In this document: positions 8,372 through 26,282 of the stretch, piece by piece
Position numbering within the stretch: position 1 is the first letter of the stretch
Layout: every line of letters starts with the position of its first letter
Origin: a virus
Lineage: Duplodnaviria; Heunggongvirae; Uroviricota; Caudoviricetes
Strand: one strand, 5' to 3'
Virus record (IMG/VR): IMGVR_UViG_2648501400_000018
Length of the DNA stretch: 32,660 nt
Translations under genes and position numbers: made by a program
The notes under the pieces: model-generated
What the model saw: only the letters and a program-made list of their open reading frames with translations
Database searches by the model: none
Told to the model about the DNA's origin: nothing

Positions 8372-8448
8372 ACATGTTGTAAACAAAACAAAAAAGCGTG
8401 CAGACAGCACGCATTTACTATCTAACTCTACTGAAGGTTTCAGATTCT

Positions 8449-9480: not shown

Positions 9481-10685
9481 GTATCAGTTTTGAGCAACTG
9501 GTGGGATTGTACAGGCAGATTACTTTCGGTAACGATATGGCCGAAGGTACGCTGGTGCTTACCCCAGAATCCTGCGAGTTGCTCAACGCTTTGCTTGAGG
9601 ACACCGATACATATGGGATCTCTCTGGCACAAGGTGAAGTAGTGGCTGGCCAGCAGGTGTCGCTTTTTGTGAACGCACCAAAGACAAAGCTAGGTCTGCT
9701 ATGCCGTAATTTGGCGGCTTTGTTAAAGTCGCCAAAACACCAAAGCGAGGAACCTTCCCGCTACTACCTGATCGACAGCCAATTTTATAGTTCGGATGCG
9801 CCAACATCCGTAATTGAAAACTACCGCACTATCTTAACATTTCTGCGCCTGCTTAAAGAAAAGTCGGCATACTTTGATACCAGTGCATATGAATGCGTTT
9901 TTTTCCGTGCCGATGTATTTAAATTACCTATACGTTACAGTGCAGAAACCGTAGAAAATCTTGATAAAACGACACTCGATGAACTCATTCAGCAGTTTTC
10001 TGACGACACACACAAAGAGCAGAAACTCTCGCTTTTAATTGAAAGCATCCAGTTAATCGGCCAGGAAACGGAAAACAATAAAGTCTTTGAGTATGCACTG
10101 AAGAACATTGATAAATTAAAAGTTGAGTTCGATAAGGGTTATCGCCTCTTCACTTCTGGGTTCTCATACGAAAAGGTTCTGGATGAACTTAGAACCGCCA
10201 AAGTTGAAGAAATGGGACGTATCCATAAAGTCTTTTCAGATATCCAAAACCAGATACTGGGTATCCCAGTCGCAACCATTATCGTCGCGACACAAATCAA
10301 GAAAGCAAGTGGTGATGTCTATCAAACCATTATCAATAGAGCAGTTTTTTTAGGGGCCTTTGTTTTTGCTACGTTGGTTATGTTGACTTTGTTCAACCAG
10401 TTACAGACGTTAACTGCTATCAAAGAAGAACTTCGACATAAAAAGACTCAGGTTGATAAAAAATATGCATCAATAAAAAATGACATTGATAGTATCTTTT
10501 GCTCTGTACGTAAACGTCTTTGCCGTCAGGTTATTGCGTTCTGGTTTATTATTATGTTCCTTGTTGTCGCTATTATATCGACAGGATTAATTTACCTATA
10601 CTGCACATACCCTGAAACATGGAATATCTTGGTTACAAAAGTGATGTCATGGCGGCATCACTTGAGCAATAAGCCCACTCCTTAA
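9477..10685 (+). CDS. Membrane protein with two C-terminal transmembrane helices, translationally coupled to the NdpA-like gene
   Basis: GTG start overlaps the upstream stop (GTGA); about 270 aa soluble N-domain then AVFLGAFVFATLVMLTLF and VIAFWFIIMFLVVAIISTGLIYLY. Confidence 0.5.
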   Translation: MSISFEQLVGLYRQITFGNDMAEGTLVLTPESCELLNALLEDTDTYGISLAQGEVVAGQQVSLFVNAPKTKLGLLCRNLAALLKSPKHQSEEPSRYYLIDSQFYSSDAPTSVIENYRTILTFLRLLKEKSAYFDTSAYECVFFRADVFKLPIRYSAETVENLDKTTLDELIQQFSDDTHKEQKLSLLIESIQLIGQETENNKVFEYALKNIDKLKVEFDKGYRLFTSGFSYEKVLDELRTAKVEEMGRIHKVFSDIQNQILGIPVATIIVATQIKKASGDVYQTIINRAVFLGAFVFATLVMLTLFNQLQTLTAIKEELRHKKTQVDKKYASIKNDIDSIFCSVRKRLCRQVIAFWFIIMFLVVAIISTGLIYLYCTYPETWNILVTKVMSWRHHLSNKPTP

Positions 10686-10750
10686 ACCCCTTTAAAAGCC
10701 TTCCTGCCAGCCATCCCCCACACTGCCTTCATCACCCAATGGAGGCACTT

Positions 10751-11038
10751 ATGAAAAATCTTTTCCCGCGTTTATCCGGCTGGCTGTTTGCCGCAGTTGT
10801 TTTGTTTGTACAAATAGTCGCGATCTCTCCGCAACAGGTTCCGGTGGTGGGTTACAAATTAAGCCTGATCTCACTGGCGGCGGTGCTGGGCTACTGGCTT
10901 GATCGCAGCCTGTTTCCCTATGCGCGACCTAATCATTTTTATCTGACGGAAGGTGAGCAACTATTGTTTGCTGCGTCCATGCTGCGCCGAGCCGTGATTG
11001 TCGCTGCTGTGTGCCTGGCCGTAGCGATGGGGATGTGA
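10751..11038 (+). CDS. Putative holin (three hydrophobic segments)
   Basis: Start placed at ATG preceded by GGAGG; hydrophobic stretches WLFAAVVLFVQIVAI, LSLISLAAVLGYWL, AVIVAAVCLAVAMGM; immediately upstream of the endolysin. Confidence 0.4.
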   Translation: MKNLFPRLSGWLFAAVVLFVQIVAISPQQVPVVGYKLSLISLAAVLGYWLDRSLFPYARPNHFYLTEGEQLLFAASMLRRAVIVAAVCLAVAMGM

Positions 11039-11040
11039 CT

Positions 11041-11757
11041 ATGGGCTGGCCACAAATTACCTGGATTGTGTTGGTCTCGCTGTCGTTAGGGATAGAGATG
11101 ATGATGCACAGCAGGACGCGTAAGCACAATTTCTGGGGACACTTAGCCAGTGTATTAGTAGTCGCTGGTTTGCTCTGGTGCGGCGGCTTTTTCAGCCAGG
11201 CGCACGCCGCCGAACCGCCCACCGCCGCGAAACCTTACCGCGCCGAATTGGTGCGTAATGCCCGCGCGGTATGGGGGATGGATGCGCCTGTCGCCGATTT
11301 CGCCGGGCAGTTCCAGCAGGAATCCGGCTGGAATCCCGCCGCCCGTTCACCCGTTGGTGCGCAGGGGATGGCGCAGTTTATGCCCTCCACTGCCGACTGG
11401 ATCAGCAAACAATTCCCGGAACTACGTTCCCGCGAGCCGTTCAATCCGTCGTGGGCCATCCGCGCGCTGATGCAGTACGACCAGTGGCTGTGGCAGCGCG
11501 TGAGTGGGCGCGATAACTGCCAGCGGATGGCGTTCACCTTAAGCGCCTATAACGGCGGCTTAGGCTGGGTGAACCGCGATAAAAAACTGGCGACGCAGCG
11601 CGGATTAAATGCTGCCGTCTGGTTCGATGCGGTGGCGACGGTCAACGCCGGGCGCAGCGCCGCCAACTGGCGCGAAAACCGGGGTTATCCGCAACGCATC
11701 CTGTACCAGAACGCGCCGCGCTATCTGTCATGGGGAGGGGCTAACTGTGTTCGATAA
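11041..11757 (+). CDS. Lytic transglycosylase-type endolysin (SLT domain) with N-terminal signal or SAR-like segment
   Basis: SLT-like motifs QESGWNPAA and GAQGMAQFMPSTADW; N-terminal hydrophobic stretch LASVLVVAGLLWCGGFFSQAHA; ATG 3 nt after the holin stop. Confidence 0.7.
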   Translation: MGWPQITWIVLVSLSLGIEMMMHSRTRKHNFWGHLASVLVVAGLLWCGGFFSQAHAAEPPTAAKPYRAELVRNARAVWGMDAPVADFAGQFQQESGWNPAARSPVGAQGMAQFMPSTADWISKQFPELRSREPFNPSWAIRALMQYDQWLWQRVSGRDNCQRMAFTLSAYNGGLGWVNRDKKLATQRGLNAAVWFDAVATVNAGRSAANWRENRGYPQRILYQNAPRYLSWGGANCVR

Positions 11758-12340
11758 ACTCAAAACGGCGGGGTTAGCCGTCACGCTGATACTGCTATTC
11801 GTCGTGTTTGGCGGGTATTTCGCGTGGCTGCAAGGCCACAAACACGGCTACGAGAAGGCGCAGACTGAATGCCTGCGCCTGCAAAAACAGCAGGCCAAGG
11901 CCGGGCAACGGGCGTTGCAGGAGGAAATAAACCGCAGCCAGCAGCAGTTGATTCACATCCGGGAAAGCGAGCAGACCTATCTCACCCGGACAGAGGAACT
12001 CACTGCACGCAACGCCGAACTACAGAGGAAAATTAACGATGTTACGCAGCATTACGTTGACGAAAAAGGCAAGGCTCATCCTTTGGCCTGCGTGTTTACT
12101 CGCGGCTTCGTGCAGCAGTACAACGCCTCCCTCGGCGTGTCCGCCCCGGATGCTGCCGCCGCTACCCGCGACGCTGGCGCAGCCGCCGCAGCCGTTCAGG
12201 GCGCTGACGCCCGGTTACGCGCCTCCGGCGTCAGCCAGCGCGACATCCTCGCCAATCTCGCCGACAACGGCCAGCGCTGCCAGCAGTTAGCGCTCCAGGT
12301 GCGCGGCTTGCAGAACTATATCGCGGAGGTGTCGCGATGA
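11747..12340 (+). CDS. Rz-like inner-membrane spanin
   Basis: Start at in-frame GTG (VFDKLKTAGLAVTLILLFVVFGGYFAWL: N-terminal TM) followed by a Q/R/E-rich coiled-coil region; directly follows the endolysin. Confidence 0.55.
   Translation: MFDKLKTAGLAVTLILLFVVFGGYFAWLQGHKHGYEKAQTECLRLQKQQAKAGQRALQEEINRSQQQLIHIRESEQTYLTRTEELTARNAELQRKINDVTQHYVDEKGKAHPLACVFTRGFVQQYNASLGVSAPDAAAATRDAGAAAAAVQGADARLRASGVSQRDILANLADNGQRCQQLALQVRGLQNYIAEVSR
12039..12290 (+). CDS. Rz1-like outer-membrane lipoprotein spanin embedded in the +1 frame of the Rz-like gene
   Basis: 83 aa ORF wholly inside the Rz-like gene; signal peptide ending LLAASC then a proline-rich mature region, the classic embedded Rz1 architecture. 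Confidence 0.5.
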   Translation: MLRSITLTKKARLILWPACLLAASCSSTTPPSACPPRMLPPLPATLAQPPQPFRALTPGYAPPASASATSSPISPTTASAASS

Positions 12341-12651
12341 TGTTGCAGATTGACTTCTGGGAGGTGATCTCGATGGCGCTGTCGTTTTTGGGCGTGCTGG
12401 TCGCCGCGGGGAAGATGCTGCTGACCCAGATTGAGAAGCGCCTCAACGAACGCTTTGAGTCGCTGGAAGCGGCACGTAAGGAGTCGGAATCCGGCTGGTC
12501 ACGGCTGGAGCGCGAGTTCCTGGAGTTCCGCGCCGACATGCCGCTGAACTATGTGCGGCGCGAGGATTATATCCGGGGACAAACGGTTATCGAGGCCAAG
12601 CTGGACGCGCTGTATAACAAAATCGAACTGTCGCAAGGGGGTGGTAAATGA
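12337..12651 (+). CDS. Hypothetical membrane-anchored coiled-coil protein
   Basis: 104 aa ORF; N-terminal hydrophobic segment ISMALSFLGVLVAAG then charged helical region; ATGA overlap with upstream gene. Confidence 0.4.
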   Translation: MMLQIDFWEVISMALSFLGVLVAAGKMLLTQIEKRLNERFESLEAARKESESGWSRLEREFLEFRADMPLNYVRREDYIRGQTVIEAKLDALYNKIELSQGGGK

Positions 12652-12954
12652 TGGACAAAGTACGCCGTGAGTCGATGCGCTGGAATCTGATGCTGGCGCT
12701 GAACAAGGCGCGGCCCTATACCAGCAATGAGCGATTTTTGCTGGCGGTGATGCAGGCGATTTACCCGGACGCCACCGGCGCTGGAGTTGCGGCGTGAGCT
12801 GGACTATCTGGCTGACCGCCGGATGGTGGATCTGGTGAAGGAACCCTCCGGCACCTGGTTCGGTGATTTGACCCGTCTCGGCGTTGATGTGGTCGAGTAC
12901 ACCGTGGACTGCGGCCCCGGCATCGCCCGCCCGCAAAAGTACTGGAGTGAATGA
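12648..12954 (+). pseudogene. Small late gene apparently split by a +1 frame change near 12775-12797
   Basis: ATG at 12648/12651 opens a 49-codon frame ending TGA at 12795-12797; the next frame is open from 12751 to a TGA at 12952-12954, and together they fill the gap to the gp27-like gene. Confidence 0.35.
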
Positions 12955-12955
12955 T

Positions 12956-13501
12956 ATGGCCCGCCGCAGCACCATCGACAAACTGCCCGAAGAGGTCAGG
13001 CGCTGGCTGGAACGGGCGCTGACCAACAGTGGCTTCAGCGGTTATGCCGAACTGGAGGAACTGATGCGTGATAAGGGCTACCTCATCAGCCGCAGCGCCA
13101 TTCACCGTTACGGCCAGAAGATTGAACGCCGATTTACCGCTATTCGCGCGGCCACCGAAGCCGCGCGGATGCTGACCGAGGGTGCCGCTGACGATCAGGA
13201 TGCCCGTTCGGAGGCGGTGATTGCGCTGATCCAGACTGAACTGTTTGAGTCTATCGTCCAGTTGCAGGAAGCCGAAGATGGCAAGATTGACCCGCAGGAG
13301 CGTGTGGCACTGCTGTCGAAGGTGGCGAAGAACGTTGCCACGCTGTCACGCGCCAGCGTCAACCTGAAGAAGTTTCAGCAGGAAGTCCGGGCGAAAGCGG
13401 AAGCTGCCGCCAGCAACGCTGAGAAGATCGCCCGTAAAGGTGGTCTGTCTGCGGAGTCCGTGCAGGCGCTACGCCGCGAGATTCTGGGGATCGCCTCATG
13501 A
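12956..13501 (+). CDS. Mu gp27-like protein (putative small terminase / DNA-binding packaging protein)
   Basis: Internal ATG gives MARRSTIDKLPEEVRRWLERALTNSGFSGYAELEELMRDKGYLISRSAIHRYG, matching the remembered N-terminal pattern of Mu gp27; directly upstream of the large terminase. Confidence 0.6.
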   Translation: MARRSTIDKLPEEVRRWLERALTNSGFSGYAELEELMRDKGYLISRSAIHRYGQKIERRFTAIRAATEAARMLTEGAADDQDARSEAVIALIQTELFESIVQLQEAEDGKIDPQERVALLSKVAKNVATLSRASVNLKKFQQEVRAKAEAAASNAEKIARKGGLSAESVQALRREILGIAS

Positions 13502-15024
13502 CCGGGTTAGCGCCAGTTCTCCAGGATACCTCCGGGCTTGATGCGCCGGTGGCGCTGATGCCCTACCAGCAACGCTGGGTGGCGGATGACTCCCCGCTGA
13601 AGGTCATCGAGAAAAGCCGACGCACCGGCATCACCTGGGCAGAGGCGTCTGATAACGTCCTGACCGCCGCCTCATCCGCCGCCGCTGGTGGTATGAACGT
13701 CTATTACATCGCCTACAACCAGGATATGACCATTGAATATATTCAGGCGTGTGCAATGTGGGCGCGGGTGTTCAACTATGCAGCCAGCGAGATAGAGGAA
13801 GGATTCTGGGACGATGAAGATGATGAGAAGCACATCAAGACGTACACTATTCGGTTCCCGGAATCTGGCTTTCGTGTGGTGGCATTATCCAGCCGCCCGT
13901 CTAACCTGCGTGGCCGTCAGGGGATCATCGTTGTGGATGAAGCCGCATTCCATGAGCAGTTACGCGAGCTGCTGAAAGCGGCGCTGGCGATGCTGATCTG
14001 GGGCGGCAAGGTGCGGGTGATCTCCACGCATGATGGCGACGATAACCCCTTTAACGAACTGATTAACGATATCCGCGCCGGGCGTCGGGCGGGCAGTATT
14101 CATCGGATAACGTTTCGTGAAGCCATCGCTGAAGGATTGTATCGCCGTGTCTGCCTGCGCACCGGGCGTGAATGGACACCGGAAGGTGAAAGCGACTGGA
14201 TGGCATCGGTGTACCGCTTCTACGGCGACGGGGCCAGCGAGGAACTGGACTGCGTGCCTGCACATTCCGGCGGCGCATGGTTATCCCGCGCGTTGATTGA
14301 GTCGCGCATGTCACCGGACACGCCGGTACTGCGTTTTACCTGTCCGCCCGGTTACGAGCTGAAACCTGACCATATCCGTGAATCAGAAACAAATGACTGG
14401 CTGACGACCCATCTGCTGCCATTGCTGGAGGCTCTGCCTGCAGAGGCTACCTCTTATGTTGGTCGTGACTTTGGTCGTAGTGGTGATTTATCTATCGACG
14501 TGCCGCTGATCCAGTTGAAGAACCTTGTGCGCCGGGTGCCGTTTATTCTGGAGCTGCGGAACGTACCTTTTAAACAGCAAGAGCAAATCACCTGGTATCT
14601 GCTGGACAGACTGCCCCGTCTGATGGGGGCCGCCTTTGATGCGCGTGGCAACGGTGCGTATCTGGCGGAGTACGCTATGCAACGGTATGGAGCAAGTCGG
14701 GTGCAGCAGGTGATGTTAAGCGAAGGCTGGTATCGGGATCATATGCCGCCGGTTAAAGCGGAGCTGGAAGATGGCACGCTGGATGCATTGCCCAGAGATG
14801 AAGATACGCTCAACGATCTGCGGGCTGTTCAGGTGATTAACGGCGTGCCGCGCATCCCCGATACCCGCAGCAAAGCTAAAGCCGACGGTGGTCAGCGTCA
14901 CGGTGAAGCAGCGATAGGAACGGCACTGGCATATTACGCCAGCCGCGAACTGAATAAAGGCCCGGTGACGGTGAACTCCCGCCGCCGTCGCCAGTCCGCC
15001 CGATTACTGGAGAACTATAACTGA
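13498..15024 (+). CDS. Terminase large subunit (Mu gp28-like)
   Basis: 508 aa ORF; position between gp27-like and portal genes; ATPase-like N-terminal and acidic nuclease-like C-terminal regions; ATGA overlap with the upstream gene. Confidence 0.7.
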   Translation: MTGLAPVLQDTSGLDAPVALMPYQQRWVADDSPLKVIEKSRRTGITWAEASDNVLTAASSAAAGGMNVYYIAYNQDMTIEYIQACAMWARVFNYAASEIEEGFWDDEDDEKHIKTYTIRFPESGFRVVALSSRPSNLRGRQGIIVVDEAAFHEQLRELLKAALAMLIWGGKVRVISTHDGDDNPFNELINDIRAGRRAGSIHRITFREAIAEGLYRRVCLRTGREWTPEGESDWMASVYRFYGDGASEELDCVPAHSGGAWLSRALIESRMSPDTPVLRFTCPPGYELKPDHIRESETNDWLTTHLLPLLEALPAEATSYVGRDFGRSGDLSIDVPLIQLKNLVRRVPFILELRNVPFKQQEQITWYLLDRLPRLMGAAFDARGNGAYLAEYAMQRYGASRVQQVMLSEGWYRDHMPPVKAELEDGTLDALPRDEDTLNDLRAVQVINGVPRIPDTRSKAKADGGQRHGEAAIGTALAYYASRELNKGPVTVNSRRRRQSARLLENYN

Positions 15025-16499
15025 TGCCACGCGGAATTTACGTTACCCCTACCGAGTTTGTTTCATTCAGCGAGCCGACCAAAAATCTGTCAGAGCAAAT
15101 CGCCGTTCGTTCGCGCTCCATTGATTTCTACGGGCTGGGAATGTACCTGCCCAATCCCGATCCCATTCTTAAAGCGCAGGGGCGCGATATCAAAATCTAC
15201 CGCGAACTGCGTAGCGATCCCTTAGTTGGCGGCTGTATTCGTCGACGCAAGGCAGCGGTCAAGGCGCTGGAGAACGGCGTCGAACGTGGCAATGCCACGG
15301 CGCGGGTGTTTCGCTTTGTGCGTGATCTGTTTGATGATTTGGATATTTCACGCATTACGGGCGAGATGACCGACTCTGTTCTCTACGGCTATCAGCCATG
15401 TGAACTGATGTGGACACGCGGCGGTAAATCCTGGGCGGTGTCTGATGTGGTGGGTAAGCCTCCGGAGTGGTTCCAGTTCGATATGGAAAACCGCCTGCGC
15501 TTTCGTGCTCGCAATGCCGGGCTGGAGGGCGAGCTGACGCCGCCGTATAAGTTCCTGTTGCCGCGTCAGGATGCGACCTACGATAACCCGTATGGCTTCC
15601 CTGATTTGTCGATGTGCTTCTGGCCCGTCACCTTCAAAAAAGGCGGCATGAAGTTCTGGGTGCGCTTTGCCGAGAAGTACGGCTCGCCGTGGGTTGTTGG
15701 CAAGCATCCGCGCGGTACGTCGCAGGGCGAGATTAACCAGTTACTGGATTCGCTGGAGGCGATGATTGAGGACGCCGTGGCCGCTATCCCGGACGATTCT
15801 TCTGTAGACATCAAAGAGGCGGCAGGTAAAGCCGACAGCAGCGATATCTACCAGAACCTGATCACCCTGTCGCGCGGTGAGATTTCTATTGCGCTGCTGG
15901 GGCAGAATCAGACCACTGAAGCCAGCGCCAACAAAGCCTCGGCGCAGGCCGGGCTGGAGGTGACTGATGATATCCGTGACGGTGATGCATCCATTGTAAC
16001 CAGCGCGTTTAACCAGCTTATCCGCTGGATTGTGGAACTGAACTTCGGTGCGGTGGACTGCCCTGTGTTCCGTATGTGGGAGCAGAAAACGGTTGATGAG
16101 GTGCAGGCCGGACGCGACCAGAAACTGTCGCAGTCAGGCGTCAAGTTCACCCCGCAATACTGGAAGCGCGAGTATCAGTTACAGGATGGCGATATCGACG
16201 AAACCCCGGCACCTGCATCGTTGGCGTTCGCTGAGGCGGTAGCCGCAGACGTGGCTGCGCAGGAGCTGCTGGACGCGGCGCTGGATGAACTGATGACCAG
16301 CGGCAAGCTGGACGATACGCTGACGCCGGTGCTGGCTCCCTTGTTTGCGCGGGTACAAAACGGCGTCGCGCCAGCGGTGTTGATGGGCGAACTGGCGGAG
16401 CTGTACCCGCAGATGAACACCGACGACCTTACAGAACGGCTGGCGCGTGTGTTGTTTGTGGCGAATATCTGGGGGCGGCTCAATGAGCGTCACGAGTAG
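15024..16499 (+). CDS. Portal protein (Mu gp29-like)
   Basis: 491 aa ORF following the large terminase; size and synteny typical of Mu-like portal proteins. Confidence 0.7.
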   Translation: MPRGIYVTPTEFVSFSEPTKNLSEQIAVRSRSIDFYGLGMYLPNPDPILKAQGRDIKIYRELRSDPLVGGCIRRRKAAVKALENGVERGNATARVFRFVRDLFDDLDISRITGEMTDSVLYGYQPCELMWTRGGKSWAVSDVVGKPPEWFQFDMENRLRFRARNAGLEGELTPPYKFLLPRQDATYDNPYGFPDLSMCFWPVTFKKGGMKFWVRFAEKYGSPWVVGKHPRGTSQGEINQLLDSLEAMIEDAVAAIPDDSSVDIKEAAGKADSSDIYQNLITLSRGEISIALLGQNQTTEASANKASAQAGLEVTDDIRDGDASIVTSAFNQLIRWIVELNFGAVDCPVFRMWEQKTVDEVQAGRDQKLSQSGVKFTPQYWKREYQLQDGDIDETPAPASLAFAEAVAADVAAQELLDAALDELMTSGKLDDTLTPVLAPLFARVQNGVAPAVLMGELAELYPQMNTDDLTERLARVLFVANIWGRLNERHE

Positions 16500-17304
16500 T
16501 GAGTTAGCCTATTGCCTGAGTCTGCCGCCAAAGCGGGCCATCGGCTATCTGGAGTCCAAAGGCTATACCCTGTCGTGGGACTGGGAGGAGGTCTGGCAGG
16601 AAGCTCACGCCCACGCTTTTACCGTCGCGAAGGTGACAAAGCTGGATATACTGGAAGATATCCGCCGCGCGCTGGAGCGGTCACTGGCGGAGGGCAAAAC
16701 CGGCGCGTGGTTTCGTAAGGAACTGGAGCCGGTGTTGAAAGAGAAAGGCTGGTGAGGCGAGAAAGAAATCACCGACCCGGACACCGGGGAAGTGACCATC
16801 ATCCAGCAAGGCAGTTCCTGGCGACTTGATACCATCTACCGCACCAATATGACGGTGGTTTACAGTGCCGGGCGCTGGGCCGAGCAGATGGAAAACGTCG
16901 ACGATCGTCCATATGGGATGTACTGTGCCATTTGCGACAACCGCACCCGTCAACCCCACCTCCTGCTGCATCAGATGGTCATGCGTCTTGATGATCCATT
17001 CTGGCAGTCATTCTACCCGCCTAACGGCTGGGGGTGCCGCTGTACAGTGATAGCAATGACTGAGGCGGATGTCCGCCGCCGCAGGCTGAAAATCACGGCC
17101 TCCGGCGATGCGCTGGGGGAAACGATGAAACTGATATCGATGCAAACCGGAGAATTGCAACCGGTGGCCACCTTTACTATTGGCAATACGATTATCACCC
17201 CAGATGCGGGCTGGTCATACGCGCCGGGCGCGGCGTACCGCCCGGACTTAGCCAAATACCAGGGCGTGCTCGCGCCGCTGGCGCAACAGGAGCTGGCACC
17301 ATGA
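16483..17304 (+). pseudogene. Head morphogenesis protein F-like (Mu gp30 / SPP1 gp7 family) interrupted by an in-frame TGA at 16753-16755
   Basis: ORFs 16447-16755 and 16792-17304 are in the same frame, separated by one TGA (…KEKGW*GEKEITDPDTGE…) with 12 open codons between; the downstream part carries the Phage_Mu_F-like motif DNRTRQPH...DDPFW...PPNGWGCRCT. Confidence 0.5.
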
Positions 17305-17837
17305 TGGAGATTAAGCTGGAGGATAATGCGTTACAGCACGCGCTGAAGAGCCTGGAGATCGGCTGCAAAGATTTAACCCCGGCGATGCACAAGATTGCCG
17401 GATCGTTACAGACGGAAACGGCAGAAACCTTCGAGGCTGAAGGTCGCCCAGCATGGGTGCCATCGCTTGCGGCGAAGAAACGCGGTGGCCCGACGCTGCG
17501 CGATACCGGTGCGCTGGCACGTTCGGTGACCACAGAGTACGACGCGCAGCACGCGGTAGTGGGATCTAATCTGGCTTATGCCGCCATTCACCAGCTCGGC
17601 GGCGAGGTGAAGCGCAAGGATCGGAAGGTGTACTTTAAGAAGGACGAAAATGGCCGCGTTGGTCGGTTTGTGAAAAAGAAAGACAGCGACACCGAGCGAA
17701 CCGCTGCCGACCATACCGCCACCTATCCGGCACGTCCGTTTTTGCCTGTGGATAGCGACGGCAACCTGACCACCCGCGCAAAACGGGTGGTGCTGGCGAC
17801 GATTCTGCGCCATCTTGAATCAGCGGCCCGTAGATAA
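17301..17837 (+). CDS. Virion morphogenesis protein (Mu G-like)
   Basis: 178 aa ORF; ATGA overlap with the F-like gene; motif RDTGALARSV...VGSNLAYAAIHQLGG typical of the phage virion-morphogenesis family. Confidence 0.6.
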   Translation: MMEIKLEDNALQHALKSLEIGCKDLTPAMHKIAGSLQTETAETFEAEGRPAWVPSLAAKKRGGPTLRDTGALARSVTTEYDAQHAVVGSNLAYAAIHQLGGEVKRKDRKVYFKKDENGRVGRFVKKKDSDTERTAADHTATYPARPFLPVDSDGNLTTRAKRVVLATILRHLESAARR

Positions 17838-17850
17838 GCCGTTTCTCCGC

Positions 17851-17868
17851 GCCGGGCGAATGCCCGGC
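17851..17868 (+). terminator. GC-rich hairpin downstream of the G-like gene (possible terminator/attenuator; no U-tract)
   Basis: GCCGGGC-GAAT-GCCCGGC, 7 bp stem, about 14 nt after the stop; not followed by a T-run, so intrinsic-terminator status is doubtful. Confidence 0.25.
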
Positions 17869-17879
17869 TTCACCGCCCA

Positions 17880-18010
17880 ACCTGCTTTATAAAGATTTAT
17901 AAAGCCCTTTATGCCCCGCTTTTCCCTCTCTCTCCCGGCGCGATGATTAAAGCGCTTTAAAAGCGATTTTCGCCCGTTTTTATAAAGCTATTCCCTGACG
18001 TACTACGGAG
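17880..18010 (+). promoter_or_regulatory. Candidate late promoter region upstream of the I-like gene with repeated TTATAAAG motifs and a 14 bp palindrome
   Basis: 178 bp non-coding gap inside the late operon; TTATAAAG at about 17887, 17897 and 17980; perfect palindrome TTAAAGCGCTTTAA at about 17947-17960. Confidence 0.35.
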
Positions 18011-18015
18011 GGAAT

Positions 18016-19107
18016 ATGCCCGCACCTATTCATATCTTTAAATCCGGCACGCATACCGCGATGAACGGTACGCAGATGCCGTTCACAGCGGCGGAGCTGG
18101 CCGCCTGTGCAGCCGCTTATGATCCGGCAGTGCATGAAGCGCCGCTGGTTATCGGTCATCCGACGCATGACGCCCCGGCTTACGGCTGGGTAAAGTCGTT
18201 AACCGCCTCGCAGGATGATTTGCAGGCCGAGCCTGACCAGGTTGATCCGGCCTTTGCCGAACTGGTCGGAGCCGGACGTTACAAGAAAATCTCCGCCTCG
18301 TTCTATCTGCCGGACTCCCCTAATAACCCAAAGCCCGGCGCGTTGTATCTGCGTCACGTGGGTTTTCTCGGTGCGCAGCCGCCTGCCGTGAAAGGACTGA
18401 AAGCGGTGGAGTTCAGCGAGCAGGAGGAAGGCGTGGTTGAGTTCGCCGACTGGGGACTGGCAACCAGCGCCGGAATGTTTGCCCGCCTGCGCGATTTCCT
18501 GATCAGCAAGTTCAGCCTCGACGAGGCCGACAGCGTTTTGCCGTCCTGGCAAATCGATGCGCTACGCGATGAGGCGCAGCGTGATGACCCGAAACCCGAT
18601 CCGGCTTTCAGTGAGCCAAAACCTGAACCAAAGGAGAAATCCGTGACTGAAGAAGAAATTAAGGCGATGCGCGAAGAGAATGCCCGCCTGAAAGCCGACG
18701 CCGCTGACCGCGCGAAGGCTGACGTAAAACGCCGTGCCGACGAGCTGCACGCCACCAACGTCTCCTTTGCCGAGGAGCTGGTGACCGGCGGCAAGCTGAC
18801 GCCTGCGGCTAAAGGCGTGGTTGTCGCGCTGCTGGATGAAGTAAGCAAAGGCGATGCGCCGGTGGAGTTCGCCGAGGGCGATGTGAAGAAACCACTGGCG
18901 ATGGCCTTTAAAGAACTATTGACAGGCGCTGCGCCGGTGCTGGATTTCAGCGAAGTTGCCAGCAAAGACCGCGCCAACCGCGACGTCGTGCGCACCGTCG
19001 ATTTTGCCGACGCCGACCCGGAGCAACTGGCGGTGCATAACAAGGCCGTAACGCTGGCGAAGGCCGAAGGCATCAGTTACGAAGCCGCCGTTAAACGCTG
19101 CTTATAA
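18016..19107 (+). CDS. Mu I-like prohead protease/scaffold protein
   Basis: 363 aa ORF; N-terminal PLVIGHPTHDAPAYGWV region and charged K/E/A-rich coiled-coil-like C-terminal half, as in Mu I (protease with in-frame scaffold). Confidence 0.6.
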   Translation: MPAPIHIFKSGTHTAMNGTQMPFTAAELAACAAAYDPAVHEAPLVIGHPTHDAPAYGWVKSLTASQDDLQAEPDQVDPAFAELVGAGRYKKISASFYLPDSPNNPKPGALYLRHVGFLGAQPPAVKGLKAVEFSEQEEGVVEFADWGLATSAGMFARLRDFLISKFSLDEADSVLPSWQIDALRDEAQRDDPKPDPAFSEPKPEPKEKSVTEEEIKAMREENARLKADAADRAKADVKRRADELHATNVSFAEELVTGGKLTPAAKGVVVALLDEVSKGDAPVEFAEGDVKKPLAMAFKELLTGAAPVLDFSEVASKDRANRDVVRTVDFADADPEQLAVHNKAVTLAKAEGISYEAAVKRCL

Positions 19108-19118
19108 AGGAGAAAAGA

Positions 19119-19370
19119 ATGGCAAATCATTTACAGGGTAAACGCGTCGTTAACCCTATCCTGACCACCGTTGCGCGTGGCTATAAAAACGCGGCGTTTA
19201 TCGGGGAGAAGATTTTCCCGGTGGTGGAGATGGATAAAGAAGGCGCAACGGTGCCGACGTTCGGCAACGGCGTGTTTGCCGTCTATGAGACGAAACGCGC
19301 CGTGGGTGCTGACAGTAACGTCATGATCCGTGAGAAAACCGGTAAAGCTGGACGCAGTGACATATATTGA
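19119..19370 (+). pseudogene. Short ORF of uncertain identity joined out of frame to the sheath gene (possible 5' remnant of the major capsid gene, or an aberrant sheath N-terminus)
   Basis: 83 aa ORF in the position where Mu-like phages carry the major head gene T; terminates inside the start of the sheath reading frame (overlap 19330-19370). Confidence 0.3.
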
Positions 19371-20100
19371 TGCCCCCATCGGCACCACGTTCAGCCAGGT
19401 GCTTGCAGGTCGTGGCGCATCCGGGACGATCAATTTTAACACCAGCTCCGAACGCGCCCGTCTGTGCTATCCGCATGTCAAGGTGTACGACGCCGCCTCC
19501 GACAGCGAACGGCTGGAGCCGCTCTCGTCGCGCGCCGCTGGCCTGCGTGCCAAAGTGGACCTGGATAACGGTTTCTGGTGGAGCAACTCCAACCAGGAAA
19601 TCCTCGGCATTACTGGTGTGGAACGTTCGCTGTCGGCGATGATTGATGACCCGCAAAGCGAGGTGAACCAACTGAACGAAAACGGCATCACCACCGTTTT
19701 CAACAGTTACGGCACTGGGATGCGACTGTGGGGCAACCGTACCGCCGCCTGGCCAACCGTGACCCATATGCGCAACTTTGAAAATGTGCGGCGTACCGGG
19801 GATGTGATTAACGAGTCGATCCGTTATTTCAGTCAGCAGTATATGGATATGCCGATTAACCAGGCGTTGATTGATGCGCTGACCGAGTCAGTGAATGCCT
19901 ACGGGCGCAAACTGATTGGCGACGGCGCGCTGCTCGGTTTTGAATGCTGGTATGACCCGGCGCGTAACGAACAGACCGAGCTGGCCGCTGGCCATCTGTT
20001 GCTGAGTTACAAATATACGCCGCCTCCGCCGCTGGAACGGCTGACGTTTGAGACGGAAATCACTTCGGAATATCTGGTTAATCTGGAAGGTAAACGCTGA
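19330..20100 (+). CDS. Tail sheath protein, P2 FI-like C-terminal portion (N-terminal region missing or frameshifted)
   Basis: AAGLRAKVDLDNGFWW, LNENGITTVFNSYGTGMRLWGNRT and YKYTPPPPLERLTFETEITSEYLVNL match the remembered C-terminal two-thirds of P2 FI; reading frame opens only at 19330. Confidence 0.6.
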   Translation: MRKPVKLDAVTYIDAPIGTTFSQVLAGRGASGTINFNTSSERARLCYPHVKVYDAASDSERLEPLSSRAAGLRAKVDLDNGFWWSNSNQEILGITGVERSLSAMIDDPQSEVNQLNENGITTVFNSYGTGMRLWGNRTAAWPTVTHMRNFENVRRTGDVINESIRYFSQQYMDMPINQALIDALTESVNAYGRKLIGDGALLGFECWYDPARNEQTELAAGHLLLSYKYTPPPPLERLTFETEITSEYLVNLEGKR

Positions 20101-20624
20101 TGGGCGGAAAAATTGAAGTTAACCGTATTACCAACGCCAATATCTATATCAACGGTAATAACCTGCTGGGCCGCGCGGAGGAGATTAAGCTGCCGGATAT
20201 CAGCATGATTATGCAGGAGCATAAGGCGCTGGGGATGGTCGGTAAAATCGAATTGCCTGCCGGGTTCGATAAGCTGGAGGGCGAGATTAAGTGGAACTCG
20301 TTTTATCGCGAAGTGATGCGTCATGCGGCCAATCCGTATAAGTCGCTGGCGTTGCAGTGCCGCTCCAGCATCGACCGCTATAACTCGACGGGCCGTATCG
20401 ATGAAATCCCGCTGGTGACGCACCTGACCATTATGTTCAAGAAGAATCCGATGGGGACGTTTAAGCAGCACGAAAACCCGGATTTTTCCAGTGCCTTTAG
20501 CTGCACCTATATCAAACAGGTGGTGGACGGCGAGACGCTGCTGGAGCTGGATTATCTGGCGAATATCTTCAAAGTGAATGGTGTGGATCAGTTGAGTACC
20601 TATCGCGCCAATATTGGCGGTTAA
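20100..20624 (+). CDS. Tail tube protein (P2 FII-like)
   Basis: 174 aa ORF directly after the sheath (ATGA-type overlap); pattern NANIYINGNNLLGRAEEIKLP...LLELDYLANIFKVNGVD resembles the P2-type tube family. Confidence 0.6.
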   Translation: MGGKIEVNRITNANIYINGNNLLGRAEEIKLPDISMIMQEHKALGMVGKIELPAGFDKLEGEIKWNSFYREVMRHAANPYKSLALQCRSSIDRYNSTGRIDEIPLVTHLTIMFKKNPMGTFKQHENPDFSSAFSCTYIKQVVDGETLLELDYLANIFKVNGVDQLSTYRANIGG

Positions 20625-20672
20625 CCGCTCATTAAAGCTGTTTAATACTGTTTGTGTAGTCCCTCCTCAATA

Positions 20673-20698
20673 CTGTCCTCATCATTTGATGAGGACAG
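20673..20698 (+). promoter_or_regulatory. Perfect 12 bp-stem hairpin covering the ribosome-binding site of the tail chaperone gene
   Basis: CTGTCCTCATCA-TT-TGATGAGGACAG in the tube-chaperone gap; the GAGGA inside the 3' arm is the only Shine-Dalgarno-like sequence upstream of the ATG at 20704. Confidence 0.4.
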
Positions 20699-20703
20699 CT
20701 ACC

Positions 20704-21027
20704 ATGAAAGACACTTTCGAACTGCAATACCCTTTCACCGCGCCCTCCGGGCAGCACATCGACGAACTGCAACTGACCCGCCTGAAGGTGAAGGATATGC
20801 GCGCTGCGCGCCGTATCAGCGACAAACCGGAGGACTGGGATGAACCGCTGCTGGCGGCGATGACCGGGCTGGTGCCGGAAGATTTAGCTGAAATGGATCT
20901 GGCGGATTACCAGGCATTGCAGAAACGATTTCAAAACATGCTTGGGCTGGGCGGCGAATCCGCAGCAACTGTGGCAGGCGATGGCACTGCTGGCGCGGTG
21001 GTTTCGGTTTCAGCCGGGGGAAATTGA
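20704..21027 (+). CDS. Tail assembly chaperone (P2 gpE-like)
   Basis: 107 aa ORF between tube and tape-measure genes; low-complexity G/A/S-rich C-terminus; overlapped by an out-of-frame extension ORF. Confidence 0.55.
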   Translation: MKDTFELQYPFTAPSGQHIDELQLTRLKVKDMRAARRISDKPEDWDEPLLAAMTGLVPEDLAEMDLADYQALQKRFQNMLGLGGESAATVAGDGTAGAVVSVSAGGN

Positions 21028-21103
21028 CGGGCTGGCGGTGGATGATTTTGAGCGCTGGCTGGATGAGGCCAGCGCGCAGATTAAGCGTGAGAGCGGAAGC
21101 TGA
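20888..21103 (+). CDS. Out-of-frame extension of the tail chaperone (E'-like), reachable only by translational frameshift
   Basis: The +1 frame is open from about 20888 to a TGA at about 21101-21103 and reads protein-like sequence (NPQQLWQAMALLARWFRFQPGEIDGLAVDDFERWLDEASAQIKRESGS); slip site not identified. Confidence 0.4.
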   Translation: MKWIWRITRHCRNDFKTCLGWAANPQQLWQAMALLARWFRFQPGEIDGLAVDDFERWLDEASAQIKRESGS

Positions 21104-21341
21104 TATGGCTGATAGCGGTAAACAACACGGTGAGTGCAACCAGAACGGGTTCCAGTACCAGCGCCACCAGTAACGCCGCCAGTGAGCCGAAGAAAACCCC
21201 GCCGCAGACAAACAACAGAATAACAAACCCGTCGTTGCTTGCTGTTAATCCGTAACTTGCCATCAGGTAAAGAATGGTTAACCAGGCAACGGCAGCGCAG
21301 GTAAAACGAAGCGCATCAAACACCATCGTTATTTTGTTCAT
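21081..21341 (-). CDS. Small membrane protein encoded antisense to the tail operon
   Basis: 86 aa ORF with 2-3 hydrophobic helices (AAVAWLTILYLMASYGL; FVILLFVCGGVFFGSLAALLVALVL) filling an otherwise non-coding gap; AGAGGGAA Shine-Dalgarno-like sequence upstream of its ATG. Confidence 0.5.
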   Translation of the reverse strand: MNKITMVFDALRFTCAAVAWLTILYLMASYGLTASNDGFVILLFVCGGVFFGSLAALLVALVLEPVLVALTVLFTAISHISFRSHA

Positions 21342-21382
21342 ACCGTTCCCTCTTCTTTGTCTCTTTTACGGGAGTGTAAAAC

Positions 21383-24070
21383 GTGGCTGCTGAATTTTCA
21401 ATCGGTGTGGTGATTAAAGGGATGATGGCGGGTTCGCTGTTGTCGGCTATTGGCGGAACGCAAAAAACCTTAAAAGGGCTGGAATCCACCACCGCACGCC
21501 TGAAAAAGCAACATGCAGATATGACGCAGGAACTGGCGCGTAATACCAATGGCAGCACCGAAGCCACGGCGCGACTAAACCGCGAGTTACAGAGTGTGGG
21601 CAGGACGCTGGAGAACCTGAAACTGCGGCACGATAACTTAGCTAACGCTGCCAGCCGGAGCGCTGCGCTGCGCTCCCAGCGCATGGAACTTTACGGACGC
21701 GGTCTGGAGACGATGGCGCAGGCAAAGGTAGTGTCGTCCCCCGTTGTTGCCTCGGTAAAACAGTATGCCGCCTTTGAGTCCGGGCTGCGTGATATCGCCG
21801 TGACGGGGGATCTGGACAGTAAGCAGGAGGCAGCAATTGGCAATGCCATTCGTCAGGCGGCAGGTCAGGTTAACCAGATGCAGGAGACGTTGCTTGGCGG
21901 CGTGAATCAACTGGTGGCTGATGGCATGAATCCAGAGAAAGCGGCAAATATGATTGGCCTGCTGGGTAAAACAGCCACCGCCACCGGCGCTGATATGACC
22001 GACCTGGCGAAAATGACCTATGCCTTCAGCGACGCGCTAAAAATCGGCGATGGCAAGGAGATGGAAGAGGCCTTTGCGCTGGCCGCTGCGGGTGCCAAAA
22101 CCGGCTCTTTTGAGCTGAAAGATATGGCAAAAGCGTTGCCGACGCTGGCAAAAAGTTTTGCCGCCAAAGGTATTACTGGCCCGGAGGCGATCAAGGAAAT
22201 TATTGCTTCACTGGAGCTGGGAAAAGGTGCAGGTTCGGCGGAGGAAGCCGTCACCAACATGACCAACTGGATGGGGGCGATGACGCGCGGTGACACTATC
22301 AAGAAATATGAAAAAGCGGGCGTGAAATATGATGCCTCCATGCAGGATTATGTTGCCAAGGGGTATTCGCAGTACGAAGCCTCGCTGATGATTGCCAATG
22401 AGTTTATTGACGGGAAAGGTGCGGCCTTTAAAAAGCAATGGGAGGCTGCGGGGGCAAAAGGCGACGGTGAAGCACAGCAAAAATTGATGGAATCCTTTGG
22501 TCTGTCAGAAATCTTTACCGATATCCAGACCGTCAACCATTTGCTGTCAATGCGTCAGAACTGGAGTCAGTACCAGACTAAAAAAACACAGATGGCGACC
22601 CCGGAAGCGCAAAAGACGCTGGATACCGACTTCGCAAAACAGGGCGATACGCTGGAGGCTCGTTGGCGAAAATCACAGGTTGCGCTGAATGAAGTGGCGT
22701 TGAGTATCGGCAGTTCGTTGTGCCCGGCGCTGATATCGCTGATGGATACCGTGGTGCCGTGGCTTGATGCGCTGGGGAAATGGGCAGCGGCGAACCCGGA
22801 AATTATCGCCGGGATCGGGAAAGCGGCGGCGGGATTTTTTGTTATTAAAAGTTCGATGATTGGCACCCAGATTGTGGCCAACTATTTATTTTCCACCTGG
22901 GCGGGCGGCGCAAAGGCGATTGCATTACTGGCTGCAAAAGGTACGCAGTTAAAAGCTGCCTTTTCCGTTGGTGGTAAACTGGCAGGCATCACTAAGTTGT
23001 TCGGCTCACTGGCGCGTGGCGCGTTGTCACTGGGTAAAATACTCGGTGGCGGACTCCTGCGCGGTCTGATGATGGCAGGACGCGCGGTGTTGTTTTTGGG
23101 CCGGGCGCTGATGATGAATCCCATCGGTCTGATCATCACCGGCATCGCCGTGGCCGCGTATCTGATTTACCGCTACTGGGGGCCGATTTCCGCTTTCTTT
23201 AAGCGGCTGTGGGCGCAGGTCACGGTAGCGTTTCGTGGGGCGTGGAGCGGCATCAAAGGTATCTGGAGTGGTGTGTCGGGCTGGTTCTCTGGTATCTGGG
23301 CGCAAATCAAAACCGCGTTCAGCGGCGGGATTGGCGGCGTGGCAAAGCTGATTACCAACTGGTCGCCGCTGGGCCTGTTCTATAAAGCCTTTGCCGGGGT
23401 GATGAAATACTTCGGTATTGATATGCCGAAAAACTTTACCGATTTTGGCGGCAATCTGATTAACGGTCTGGTGAACGGTATCGGCAATGCGCTGACTGCC
23501 GCGAAAGAGACGGTCGTTAACTTTGGTAACTCGATTTCAGGCTGGTTTAAGGAGACGCTGGGGATTCATTCCCCCAGCCAGGTGTTTGCCGGGTTCGGCG
23601 ACAATATCGCGCAAGGGGCCGCTATCGGTATCAACCGCACCGCCCCGGATGCGATTTCCGCCAGCCAGCAGATGGCACAGGCATTGATTCCACCCGCACC
23701 GGGTATCGTTGTTCCGGGCATTGCGGTGTCGGCCATTCCCCGACAGTCAGACGTTATGTTACATGGTGCTATGGGTGCGGCGCTGTCACAACCAAAACCA
23801 TTGCCGCCGATAACCCCCGGTGTCGCAGTCCCTGCTGTTCCTGAACTGCCGAAAAGTACCGCGCCAGCCGCCAAAGGCCGCAATGCCAGTGCGCACGTAC
23901 CGGGGCAGTCGTCCGGGGTGAATGTCACCTTCGCGCCGCAAATCACTATCAAAGGCGCAGCCTCAACGACCGAAGGTGAAATCACCTCGGCGCTGAAACT
24001 GAGCCTGCACGAACTGGAGAAGATGATGGAGCGGATTATGGCGCGTCGTGAACGCCGGGAGTATGCGTAA
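21383..24070 (+). CDS. Tail tape measure protein
   Basis: 895 aa ORF downstream of the chaperone/frameshift pair; long helical A/K/Q-rich regions and G/W-rich hydrophobic repeats (GIWSGVSGWFSGIWAQIKTAFSGG) typical of tape measure proteins. Confidence 0.75.
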   Translation: MAAEFSIGVVIKGMMAGSLLSAIGGTQKTLKGLESTTARLKKQHADMTQELARNTNGSTEATARLNRELQSVGRTLENLKLRHDNLANAASRSAALRSQRMELYGRGLETMAQAKVVSSPVVASVKQYAAFESGLRDIAVTGDLDSKQEAAIGNAIRQAAGQVNQMQETLLGGVNQLVADGMNPEKAANMIGLLGKTATATGADMTDLAKMTYAFSDALKIGDGKEMEEAFALAAAGAKTGSFELKDMAKALPTLAKSFAAKGITGPEAIKEIIASLELGKGAGSAEEAVTNMTNWMGAMTRGDTIKKYEKAGVKYDASMQDYVAKGYSQYEASLMIANEFIDGKGAAFKKQWEAAGAKGDGEAQQKLMESFGLSEIFTDIQTVNHLLSMRQNWSQYQTKKTQMATPEAQKTLDTDFAKQGDTLEARWRKSQVALNEVALSIGSSLCPALISLMDTVVPWLDALGKWAAANPEIIAGIGKAAAGFFVIKSSMIGTQIVANYLFSTWAGGAKAIALLAAKGTQLKAAFSVGGKLAGITKLFGSLARGALSLGKILGGGLLRGLMMAGRAVLFLGRALMMNPIGLIITGIAVAAYLIYRYWGPISAFFKRLWAQVTVAFRGAWSGIKGIWSGVSGWFSGIWAQIKTAFSGGIGGVAKLITNWSPLGLFYKAFAGVMKYFGIDMPKNFTDFGGNLINGLVNGIGNALTAAKETVVNFGNSISGWFKETLGIHSPSQVFAGFGDNIAQGAAIGINRTAPDAISASQQMAQALIPPAPGIVVPGIAVSAIPRQSDVMLHGAMGAALSQPKPLPPITPGVAVPAVPELPKSTAPAAKGRNASAHVPGQSSGVNVTFAPQITIKGAASTTEGEITSALKLSLHELEKMMERIMARRERREYA

Positions 24071-24976
24071 TGTTTGCCGTACTGGGGGATATTGAGTTTG
24101 AGGTGGTGACCTACTGGGACGGCTTTGATGCGTCGTTTGGCATGGATTACGCCGAGCACGCACGCATCGAAGGCAAACCGGGGTTGCAGTTTATCGGCGA
24201 AAAGCTGGATGAAGTCAGCATCAGTCTGGTGTTCCATGACCACTATTGCCAGCCGGATGTTGAACTGGCGCGGCTGCGTGGCGCATCAGGCGCTGGCGCT
24301 GGTGTTCGGCAACGGGGACTATCGCGGCTGGTTTGTGGTAACCGATATTCGGGCGACCAGCCAGCAGACCGATGGCCTCGGTAATGTGCAGGCGTTAAGT
24401 GCAGAGCTGTCGCTGAAGGAGTACATCGGCGATCCGAAAAATCCCCTGACGCCACCGGCTGTGTCCGGGGACGATCCGAATATCGATTCGTGGTCTGACG
24501 ATGCCGACGACAGTTTTTCCGGCAGCGATATGTTCGACGGCCTAAGCGATATTACCGACGGGCTGGATGCGGCATCGGACGCGCTGGATGCCGCAGAGCA
24601 GGCGTTCGATGAGGCAGTGTCGTGGGCGGAAGATGTGGTGGAGCAAGTTGAAGATGCGATTGATGACGTACTTTCACCGCTGGAGGACGTTCTCAATGAG
24701 GTGTTATCACCACTCGATGAGGTGATGCAGGCGCTGGAGGGTATCATGGGCGGCGGCGTACTGACCGATGCTCTCGGCGAGGTCGGGCAAGTCGCCTCGC
24801 AGATTTACGATGAAATCAGCAGTACGTTGACCGGGCTTGACGGTATCACCCCCGACAACTTTGCCGATCTGTTCTCGCAGGCACTGGACGTGGTGCGCAA
24901 CGGTCAGTCATTGATGGAAGCGTGTTCTCCCGCCGTTAGCAGGCTGGCGGCGGCAATCATTACCAGGAGCGTGTGA
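24070..24976 (+). pseudogene. Tail protein gpU-like / Mu DNA-circulation (N)-like gene with a +1 frame change near 24277-24290
   Basis: Frame A (24070-24384) has a gpU-like N-terminus up to ...DVELARLR; frame B (24125-24976) continues the family pattern from ...HQALALVFGNGDYRGWFVVTDI and carries an acidic C-terminal region. Confidence 0.5.
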
Positions 24977-25194
24977 TGGGCGGCTGGATTGAACATATCA
25001 CCACCGAGGGCGAGCGCTGGGATAATCTGGCGTTCCTCTATTACGGCGATCCAATGGGCTATGAGCGCATCATTGTCGCTAACCCCCATATTGCGATCAC
25101 GCCGACACTGGCCTCCGGGCTGCGGTTGCGTATTCCGGTGATCGGCCCGATGCAGGTGCATAACGTTGATGAGGTGCCGCCGTGGCTCAGGTAA
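24973..25194 (+). CDS. Tail protein X-like (LysM-like small tail protein)
   Basis: 73 aa ORF; pattern GERWDNLAFLYYGDPMGYERIIVANPHIAITPTLASGLRLRIP resembles P2 gpX. Confidence 0.6.
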   Translation: MMGGWIEHITTEGERWDNLAFLYYGDPMGYERIIVANPHIAITPTLASGLRLRIPVIGPMQVHNVDEVPPWLR

Positions 25195-26282
25195 ATGCCG
25201 TTATCACCCCCGTTTTCACCCTGTTTTACGGGCAGAAAGATATCACTCACGATATTGCTCCTTTTGTCCTGAGCGTGACGTATACCGACAGTCTCAAGAG
25301 CGAATCGGATGAAATCGACGTGCAGGTGGAAGACACCGCCGGGCGCTGGCGCGAGGCGTGGTATCCGGGCAAAGGCGATATGCTGATGCTGAAGTTGGGC
25401 TATCAGGGCGAAGCGTTGCTGGACTGTGGAGCGTTCTCCATCGATGAGATTGAGCTGGGCGCACCGCCGGATACGGTATCCATTCGCGGCGTGGCGACGT
25501 CGGTCAACAGCGCTCTGCGTACCGCCTCCAGCGAGGGCTACGAAGAGACGACGCTGGATGCGATTGCCAGCCGTATCGCGCAGAAGCATGGTCTGAAGCT
25601 GGTCGGTCAGATAGAGCCGATTACCATTGACCGGGTGACGCAATACGCGGAAACCGACGTCGGTTTTCTGAAGCGGCTGGCGGGTGAGTATGGTTATGCG
25701 CTGAAAGTCACCACTGGCGAGCTGGTGTTTTCCCATCTGGCTACACTGCGAAGTAACGCGCCGGTGACGACGCTGACGCCGCAGGATGTAGCGCGCTGGT
25801 CGCTGCGCGATACCATCAACCGCATCTATAAGGATGCAAAGGTGGCGCATCAGAAGAGTAAAGAGAAGACGCTGGTGACGTACCACGCCGACGGCCCGCC
25901 GACCACGGAGACGCGTGGTAAATCGACCAGCGCCGATACGCTCAAGGTCAATGCACGGGCGGCGGATCAGGGGACGGCGCAGGTGAAAGCCGAGGCGGCG
26001 CTGGATGACCATAACGAGTATCAGCAGACCGGTTCGCTCTCGATGATGGGCAACACGCAGCTTATCGCCGGGAACAAAATCACTCTCGACGGGTTCGGCG
26101 TGCTCTCCGGGGAGTGGCTGATCACCAGCGCCCGTCACTCGTTTGACCGTTCATCGGGCTACAGCACCGAAATTGAGGTCGGACGTGGCCCGAAAACGGC
26201 CTCCGGCGGCGGGAAGAAGAAAAAACCGGATACGCTGACCGTCTATCACCCGGACGGCCCACCCACCCAGGAGAAAAAATGA
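25182..26282 (+). CDS. Baseplate hub / late control D-like tail protein
   Basis: 366 aa ORF immediately upstream of the gpV-like spike gene; size and synteny as P2 gpD / Mu P-like proteins. Confidence 0.55.
   Translation: MAQVNAVITPVFTLFYGQKDITHDIAPFVLSVTYTDSLKSESDEIDVQVEDTAGRWREAWYPGKGDMLMLKLGYQGEALLDCGAFSIDEIELGAPPDTVSIRGVATSVNSALRTASSEGYEETTLDAIASRIAQKHGLKLVGQIEPITIDRVTQYAETDVGFLKRLAGEYGYALKVTTGELVFSHLATLRSNAPVTTLTPQDVARWSLRDTINRIYKDAKVAHQKSKEKTLVTYHADGPPTTETRGKSTSADTLKVNARAADQGTAQVKAEAALDDHNEYQQTGSLSMMGNTQLIAGNKITLDGFGVLSGEWLITSARHSFDRSSGYSTEIEVGRGPKTASGGGKKKKPDTLTVYHPDGPPTQEKK

Follow-up and report, generated by a model that had tools for sequence, protein, structure and literature searches.

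A 2834-bp deletion joining capsid and sheath gene remnants in a BcepMu-type prophage of Escherichia coli

The window, by which we mean the whole 32,660-nucleotide stretch of DNA analysed here, contains on its + strand a short interval flanked by two intact structural genes. To the left lies the head maturation protease/scaffold gene (18016-19107, 363 aa; phrog_976, E 2e-146), and to the right the P2-type tail tube gene (20100-20624, 174 aa; Pfam Phage_tube, E 3e-57). The original prediction placed two open reading frames (ORFs) between them, and both are present as claimed: an 83-aa ORF in frame 0 (19119-19370) and a 256-aa ORF in the +1 frame relative to it (19330-20100). The second is a mechanical ORF containing the remnant of a tail sheath gene, whose stop codon overlaps the ATG of the tube gene (TGATG). 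The match statistics of both ORFs are far above chance.

The 83-aa ORF is chimeric. Over its residues 1-75 it matches the first 75 residues of the 312-aa major head protein of near-identical relatives with 100% identity (tblastn E 9e-45), and residues 1-75 of the protein in the capsid position of Escherichia phage PhiKM with 71% identity (E 3e-38), which identifies the piece as the N-terminus of a capsid rather than of a sheath protein, a choice that had been left to be made. A Pfam search of the 83-aa ORF gave no match; the full-length capsid protein of the type found in the intact contig L011 belongs to phrog_1005, major head protein (E 3e-114). The major capsid gene remnant occupies 19119-19343 on the + strand, corresponds to codons 1-75 of 312 with 100% identity to the L011 capsid, and is preceded by its native ribosome-binding site aaggagaaaagaATG. 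Past this point, the capsid frame continues for eight more codons (KAGRSDIY), read from out-of-frame sheath DNA, and stops at 19368-19370. An ATG at 19370 overlapping this stop was considered as a site of translational coupling into the sheath and rejected, as it lies in the third frame and not in the sheath frame.

The sheath remnant, delimited by tblastn and Pfam, spans 19344-20100 on the + strand and consists of the third base of codon 220, codons 221-471 and the stop codon. Sheath residues 221-471 match the window with 99.6% identity (tblastn E 5e-171), the homology beginning at 19345, and the 256-aa ORF shares 86% identity with the 475-aa PhiKM sheath over residues 225-473 of the latter (E 1e-168). 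In Pfam, the Phage_sheath_1C domain of the ORF is complete, and the match to Phage_sheath_1 (168 profile positions) begins only at position 47. Capsid DNA, translated out of frame, supplies the first five codons of the 256-aa ORF. Candidate GTG starts are located at 19330 and 19357, the latter chosen by gene callers (247 aa), and neither has a good Shine-Dalgarno sequence, unlike the capsid remnant with its native one. The description of this ORF as the C-terminal two-thirds of a P2-type sheath holds for the approximate length of the 396-aa P2 FI protein, but measured against the element's own sheath the remnant makes up 53%.

The full-length sheath of an intact relative aligns from end to end with the R2 pyocin sheath PA0622 (PDB 3J9Q; E 6e-51). 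Relative to this R-type pyocin sheath, the remnant retains the C-terminal core, equivalent to pyocin residues ~149-381, but has no equivalent of residues 1-148, which include the N-terminal strand of the inter-subunit mesh. According to the summary of Ge et al. 2015 given in PMC6088184, the N-terminal strand of a sheath subunit and the C-terminal strand of its neighbour extend a beta-sheet in the adjacent subunit to form an interwoven mesh that keeps the sheath together. Since the mesh strand and approximately the first 148 pyocin-equivalent residues are missing, a functional sheath appears to be excluded, and the fragment, even if translated, would not be able to build a contractile one.

Near-identical copies of the element were collected by exact-protein look-ups; 11 public E. 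coli contigs encode the identical protease protein. Three representative intact contigs (L011, L012 and L013) were used for comparison. All three align to window positions 8015-19343 and 19344-26273 with 99.72-99.97% identity, and a block of 2834 bp is present only in these contigs. Between the protease and the tube, the intact arrangement, in contigs with 99.95-99.97% identity on either side, encodes a capsid protein of 312 aa, a cement protein of 112 aa, a gp36 adaptor of 147 aa, a gp37 protein of 154 aa, a 76-aa ORF and a sheath of 471 aa. The deleted genes carry the PHROG labels major head protein, head decoration/scaffold, head-tail adaptor, gp37 and tail sheath (phrog_23), and the cement/decoration protein is recognized as Pfam Phage_cement_2. 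A similar protease-to-tube block of ~3.9 kb was found in PhiKM, KP12 and a prophage of E. coli A35, with a capsid-sized gene of ~315 aa, four small genes and a sheath of 470-475 aa.

Base-by-base alignment with L011 placed the deletion junction, a feature without strand, at 19343/19344; the 2834 bp absent between these two bases are exactly L011 positions 11329-14162. The missing stretch begins with capsid codon 76 and ends after two bases of sheath codon 220, so that window position 19343 is the last base of capsid codon 75 (GGT, 19341-19343) and 19344 is the third base of sheath codon 220. Lost with it were capsid residues 76-312, the cement/decoration protein, the gp36-type head-tail adaptor, gp37, the 76-aa ORF and sheath residues 1-220. 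Division of 2834 by three leaves a remainder of two and the capsid and sheath frames disagree across the junction, which accounts for the change of frame between the 83-aa ORF and the sheath remnant. The original prediction of an internal deletion reaching from the capsid into the sheath gene was therefore borne out by the alignment it had called for: the capsid-to-sheath block is present in relatives that are 99.96% identical over the flanks and is absent from the window. The deletion is recent, because the flanks differ from the intact copies by only about six substitutions in 18 kb.

In the L011 alignment, with a slash marking the break, the left side reads ...AACCGGT/TCGG... (more fully ...GAGAAAACCGGT/TCGG...) and the right side ...GCAGA/AAAG... 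(more fully ...CTGGCAGA/AAAGCTGG...). The join is blunt, with zero shared bases, and no microhomology, direct repeat or inverted repeat was found at the junction when the sequence up to 40 nt from either breakpoint was searched. Two candidates were dismissed: the hexamer AGAAAA is common to both breakpoint regions but out of register, and an 8-nt inverted repeat near the breakpoints (GTGCTGAC/GTCAGCAC) has a geometry that fails to explain the join, about 0.1 such matches being expected by chance. In the intact capsid gene, the left breakpoint is also located within a palindrome of 8 bp, AACCGGTT (window 19336-19343; L011 11322-11329), to which we give no weight. The lack of microhomology at the join points to illegitimate, homology-independent (non-homologous) end joining rather than to slipped-strand or repeat slippage or to RecA-mediated recombination between repeats.

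The identical junction is found in the Logan assembly SRR19671056 (contig_46, 117 kb), with 100% identity over 21 kb, and also in an NCBI contig of 277 kb, for which the exact 83-aa product is on record. The two assemblies come from different pipelines but possibly from one isolate, and their independence as samples is therefore unproven. With the junction limited to one or two assemblies and the evidence drawn from assemblies instead of reads, one may ask whether the prophage is intact in the cell and an assembler collapsed 2.8 kb. We regard such an assembly or sequencing artefact as very unlikely. Two pipelines arrived at the same junction, and the breakpoints have no common repeat or k-mer to cause a collapse, so reads across the junction would be needed for a graph assembler to connect them. 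Furthermore, the same element bears another private lesion, a 1-bp G insertion at ~12777 that shortens a phrog_436 gene of the late region (12648-12797, + strand) from 101 to 49 aa and was found only in the deletion-bearing copies.

The junction has a narrow distribution. Only two of the 11 contigs with the identical protease contain the large deletion. No intact relative with the same compact arrangement was encountered, as none of the 229 complete E. coli genomes with a match spans the junction and all of their alignments resume at window position 19345. An exact search for the 32-nt junction in a set with one genome per species likewise found none, so the deletion is not a species-level feature. 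The near-identical E. coli prophages SRR30991827_2, DRR827163_137816 and SRR12769711_72 share 99.72-99.97% identity over ~18 kb of flanks as well as the identical protease protein, but they keep both the 2834-bp block and an intact 101-aa phrog_436 gene, and the DRR827163 copy additionally has an intact F gene.

The gene content of the rest of the window identifies the element as a BcepMu-type transposable prophage of E. coli, with head and transposition genes of Mu type and a tail of P2 type. Among the early genes, Pfam detected Mor (20-427), GemA (448-801), an AAA+ B-type ATPase (AAA_22; 2424-3548) and a DDE (rve) transposase (3558-5312; E 6e-7, though below the gathering score). Pfam and PHROG scans added DUF3164, a repressor and a nucleoid-associated protein to the early and regulatory genes, and identified the lysis genes as holin, SLT endolysin and spanin. 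The Mu-type head and packaging module includes small and large terminase subunits, a Mu-type portal, Mu F and Mu G, and is followed by the P2-type tail genes, collinear with PhiKM, which was classed as Bcepmuvirus by its depositors, and with KP12. The same gene order, from the Mu gp27-like small terminase through large terminase, portal, F, G and protease/scaffold to the P2-type tube, chaperones, tape measure and baseplate, is shared with the BcepMu-like phages (Bcepmuvirus: Burkholderia phage BcepMu, phiE255, Escherichia phage PhiKM and Klebsiella phage KP12). In these phages as in the window, the early genes (rve transposase, AAA ATPase, GemA and Mor) lie on the opposite strand. Their sheath and tube DNA is 72-79% identical to that of the window; however, they have the C-terminal three-quarters of the capsid, cement, gp36, gp37, orf76 and the N-terminal half of the sheath, all of which the window lacks.

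A capsid gene elsewhere in the element would alter this picture, and the original prediction that no other ORF in the window looks like a capsid protein was upheld by three types of search. When the six deleted proteins were compared with the whole window by tblastn, only capsid residues 1-75 and sheath residues 221-471 were recovered, other matches having E > 0.1, and none of the remaining window ORFs scored as a head (capsid) protein in Pfam and PHROG scans. The only capsid-sized ORF without an assigned function, of 402 aa (9477-10685), was considered as a substitute capsid gene and discarded, since this member of phrog_5023 also occurs in the intact relatives.

We also considered whether the compact arrangement could be native, that is, whether the element could be a functional phage or a tailocin-like entity with a short sheath and a capsid gene that is located elsewhere or not needed. 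The P2-type tail genes downstream (tube, chaperones, tape measure, baseplate and fibres) appear intact, as this reading would expect. Yet relatives with 99.96% identity possess the full block, the arrangement occurs in no complete E. coli genome or phage record examined, the window holds no second capsid gene, and the remnant has no proper start and a Phage_sheath_1 domain that is truncated at profile position 47. Unlike a tailocin, the element retains its terminase, portal and protease genes. We thus consider a native compact arrangement exceedingly improbable. An R-type tailocin in particular was rejected because the sheath is reduced to residues 221-471 and because the transposase and B ATPase genes are present along with the terminase, portal and protease genes. 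A fusion by programmed translational frameshift was also rejected, given that the junction is absent from the compared relatives and the change of frame follows arithmetically from the length of the deletion. Taken together, the region almost certainly owes its structure to one deletion of 2834 bp in a BcepMu-type E. coli prophage.

The deletion is not the only lesion in the virion genes. In the Mu-F-like head morphogenesis gene (16483-17304, + strand), translation and comparison with L012, L011 and L013 revealed a TGG to TGA change at 16753-16755, codon 91 of 273, which splits the gene into 90 and 170 aa. L012 encodes the 273-aa protein with TGG, while L011 and L013 have TGA. The TGA allele occurs on at least eight contigs from several sequencing runs, most of which retain the full capsid-to-sheath block. 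The nonsense codon lies within the part of the gene that corresponds to the Pfam Phage_Mu_F profile and is expected to be inactivating, although readthrough or function in two pieces is conceivable. A further sister copy, L017 (SRR31898987), has a 187-bp deletion in the protease/scaffold gene, independent of the one described above and lying exactly between two 12-bp direct repeats AAGGCGATGCGC (window 18661-18672 and 18848-18859; L017 site 4769-4780). In contrast to the blunt 2834-bp deletion, the 187-bp deletion is repeat-mediated. Compared with its intact relatives, the prophage in the window is therefore defective, with essential virion genes missing or broken through the 2834-bp deletion, the F nonsense codon and the frameshift in the 101-aa ORF.

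Because the F nonsense codon is common to otherwise intact sister copies, it is, by parsimony, probably older than the 2834-bp deletion. The prophage was then probably non-viable already, and the deletion would be a later step of decay rather than the inactivating event. The 2834-bp deletion and the frameshift in the window copy, and the 187-bp deletion in L017, presumably arose independently after the F nonsense codon under relaxed selection. In the scenario that we propose, the nonsense codon in the Mu-F-like head gene would first have disabled the prophage, and a single deletion of 2834 bp would then have fused capsid codon 75 to the last base of sheath codon 220. The capsid frame runs eight codons into sheath DNA and stops, giving the 83-aa ORF, and the C-terminal half of the sheath is left in the +1 frame with neither a start of its own nor a good ribosome-binding site. 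The deletion itself would represent neutral decay.

With capsid residues 76-312, the adaptor and the head-completion genes gone, we infer that the element cannot make heads and does not produce particles; a second, related prophage, if present intact at another site of the genome, could complement it in trans. The original prediction that the deletion left the prophage unable to build heads or a normal sheath agrees with the genes lost, with the refinement that the F nonsense codon had probably disabled the element already. More speculatively, the early stop of the 83-aa ORF may lower the expression of the downstream tail genes, either through polarity or through lost translational coupling at the TGATG overlap.

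Instead of neutral decay, the deletion might have been favoured for stopping the production of virions, or because superinfecting related phages are hindered in their assembly by the capsid or sheath fragments. In principle, truncated structural subunits are able to poison assembly, and the 83-aa capsid fragment keeps a strong native ribosome-binding site and its position in the late operon, both of which speak for such a domesticated remnant. The allele, however, is rare among the contigs with the identical protease and arose very recently, and thus shows no sign of selection; the F nonsense codon had probably made the element non-viable beforehand; and the sheath fragment has no translation start. 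The transposase, B ATPase and lysis genes all remain, and killing of the host on induction would consequently not be prevented. A selected or domesticated remnant is for these reasons highly doubtful. The more specific idea that the surviving fragments (the 83-aa capsid N-terminus and possibly the 247-aa sheath core), expressed from the late operon, act as dominant-negative poisons against superinfecting BcepMu-like phages seems just as improbable; if true, the deletion would have created an accidental anti-phage function that was then retained.

Neutral decay by deletion fits a familiar pattern. Deletional decay of prophages is textbook knowledge, and in cryptic prophages of the K-12 type essential morphogenesis genes are deleted and point lesions accumulate, with regulatory, lysis and accessory genes remaining. 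The element studied here resembles such cryptic E. coli prophages in having lost morphogenesis genes by deletion and point lesions while keeping its regulatory, lysis and accessory genes, but its decay is far less advanced: apart from a single 2.8-kb deletion, a nonsense codon and a frameshift, the element of ~35 kb is complete. Cryptic and defective prophages are reviewed more generally in PMC6832061 and PMC10448788. The sister copies form a small early series, from intact, through the F nonsense codon only, to the additional 187-bp repeat-mediated deletion or the additional 2834-bp blunt deletion with frameshift. The finding is correct and well documented here and at the same time biologically ordinary, the process being already known, and its significance extends little beyond annotation, as stepwise prophage decay is well established. 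For annotation, the locus should be recorded as two pseudogene fragments, a capsid N-terminus and a sheath C-terminus, not as a hypothetical protein followed by a short sheath protein.

Several minor observations concern the accessory genes and the relatives of the element. A gene pair between the repressor region and the lysis cassette (8398-10685) comprises an NA37-type nucleoid-associated protein (360-aa ORF) and the overlapping 402-aa ORF, to whose phrog_5023 family no function is assigned; the pair had no match in PADLOC, occurs in the intact relatives as well, and may be a moron or accessory module. At the right end, a D12-class (Dam-like) N6-adenine DNA methyltransferase gene (31887-32660; Pfam E 1.5e-28, PADLOC MTase_II E 6e-109) overruns the limit of the window, and it was the only finding of the PADLOC scan of accessory ORFs. 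A search for related loci with the protease protein retrieved nothing beyond Photorhabdus prophages with 65% identity and two distant matches in spirochaetes, none of which helped to delimit the deletion. The Photorhabdus prophages, in P. viridis, P. antumapuensis and P. kayaii (L005-L007), carry this 65%-identical protease/scaffold protein, which indicates that the phage type reaches beyond Escherichia, Salmonella and Klebsiella. Finally, a strongly hydrophobic 86-aa ORF lies antisense between the tail chaperone and tape measure genes (21081-21341, - strand). Gene calls in every sister contig include it, the corresponding site in E. coli A35 (L003 10737-11015) bears the annotation of a hypothetical protein, and the product of the 86-aa ORF is likely a membrane protein.
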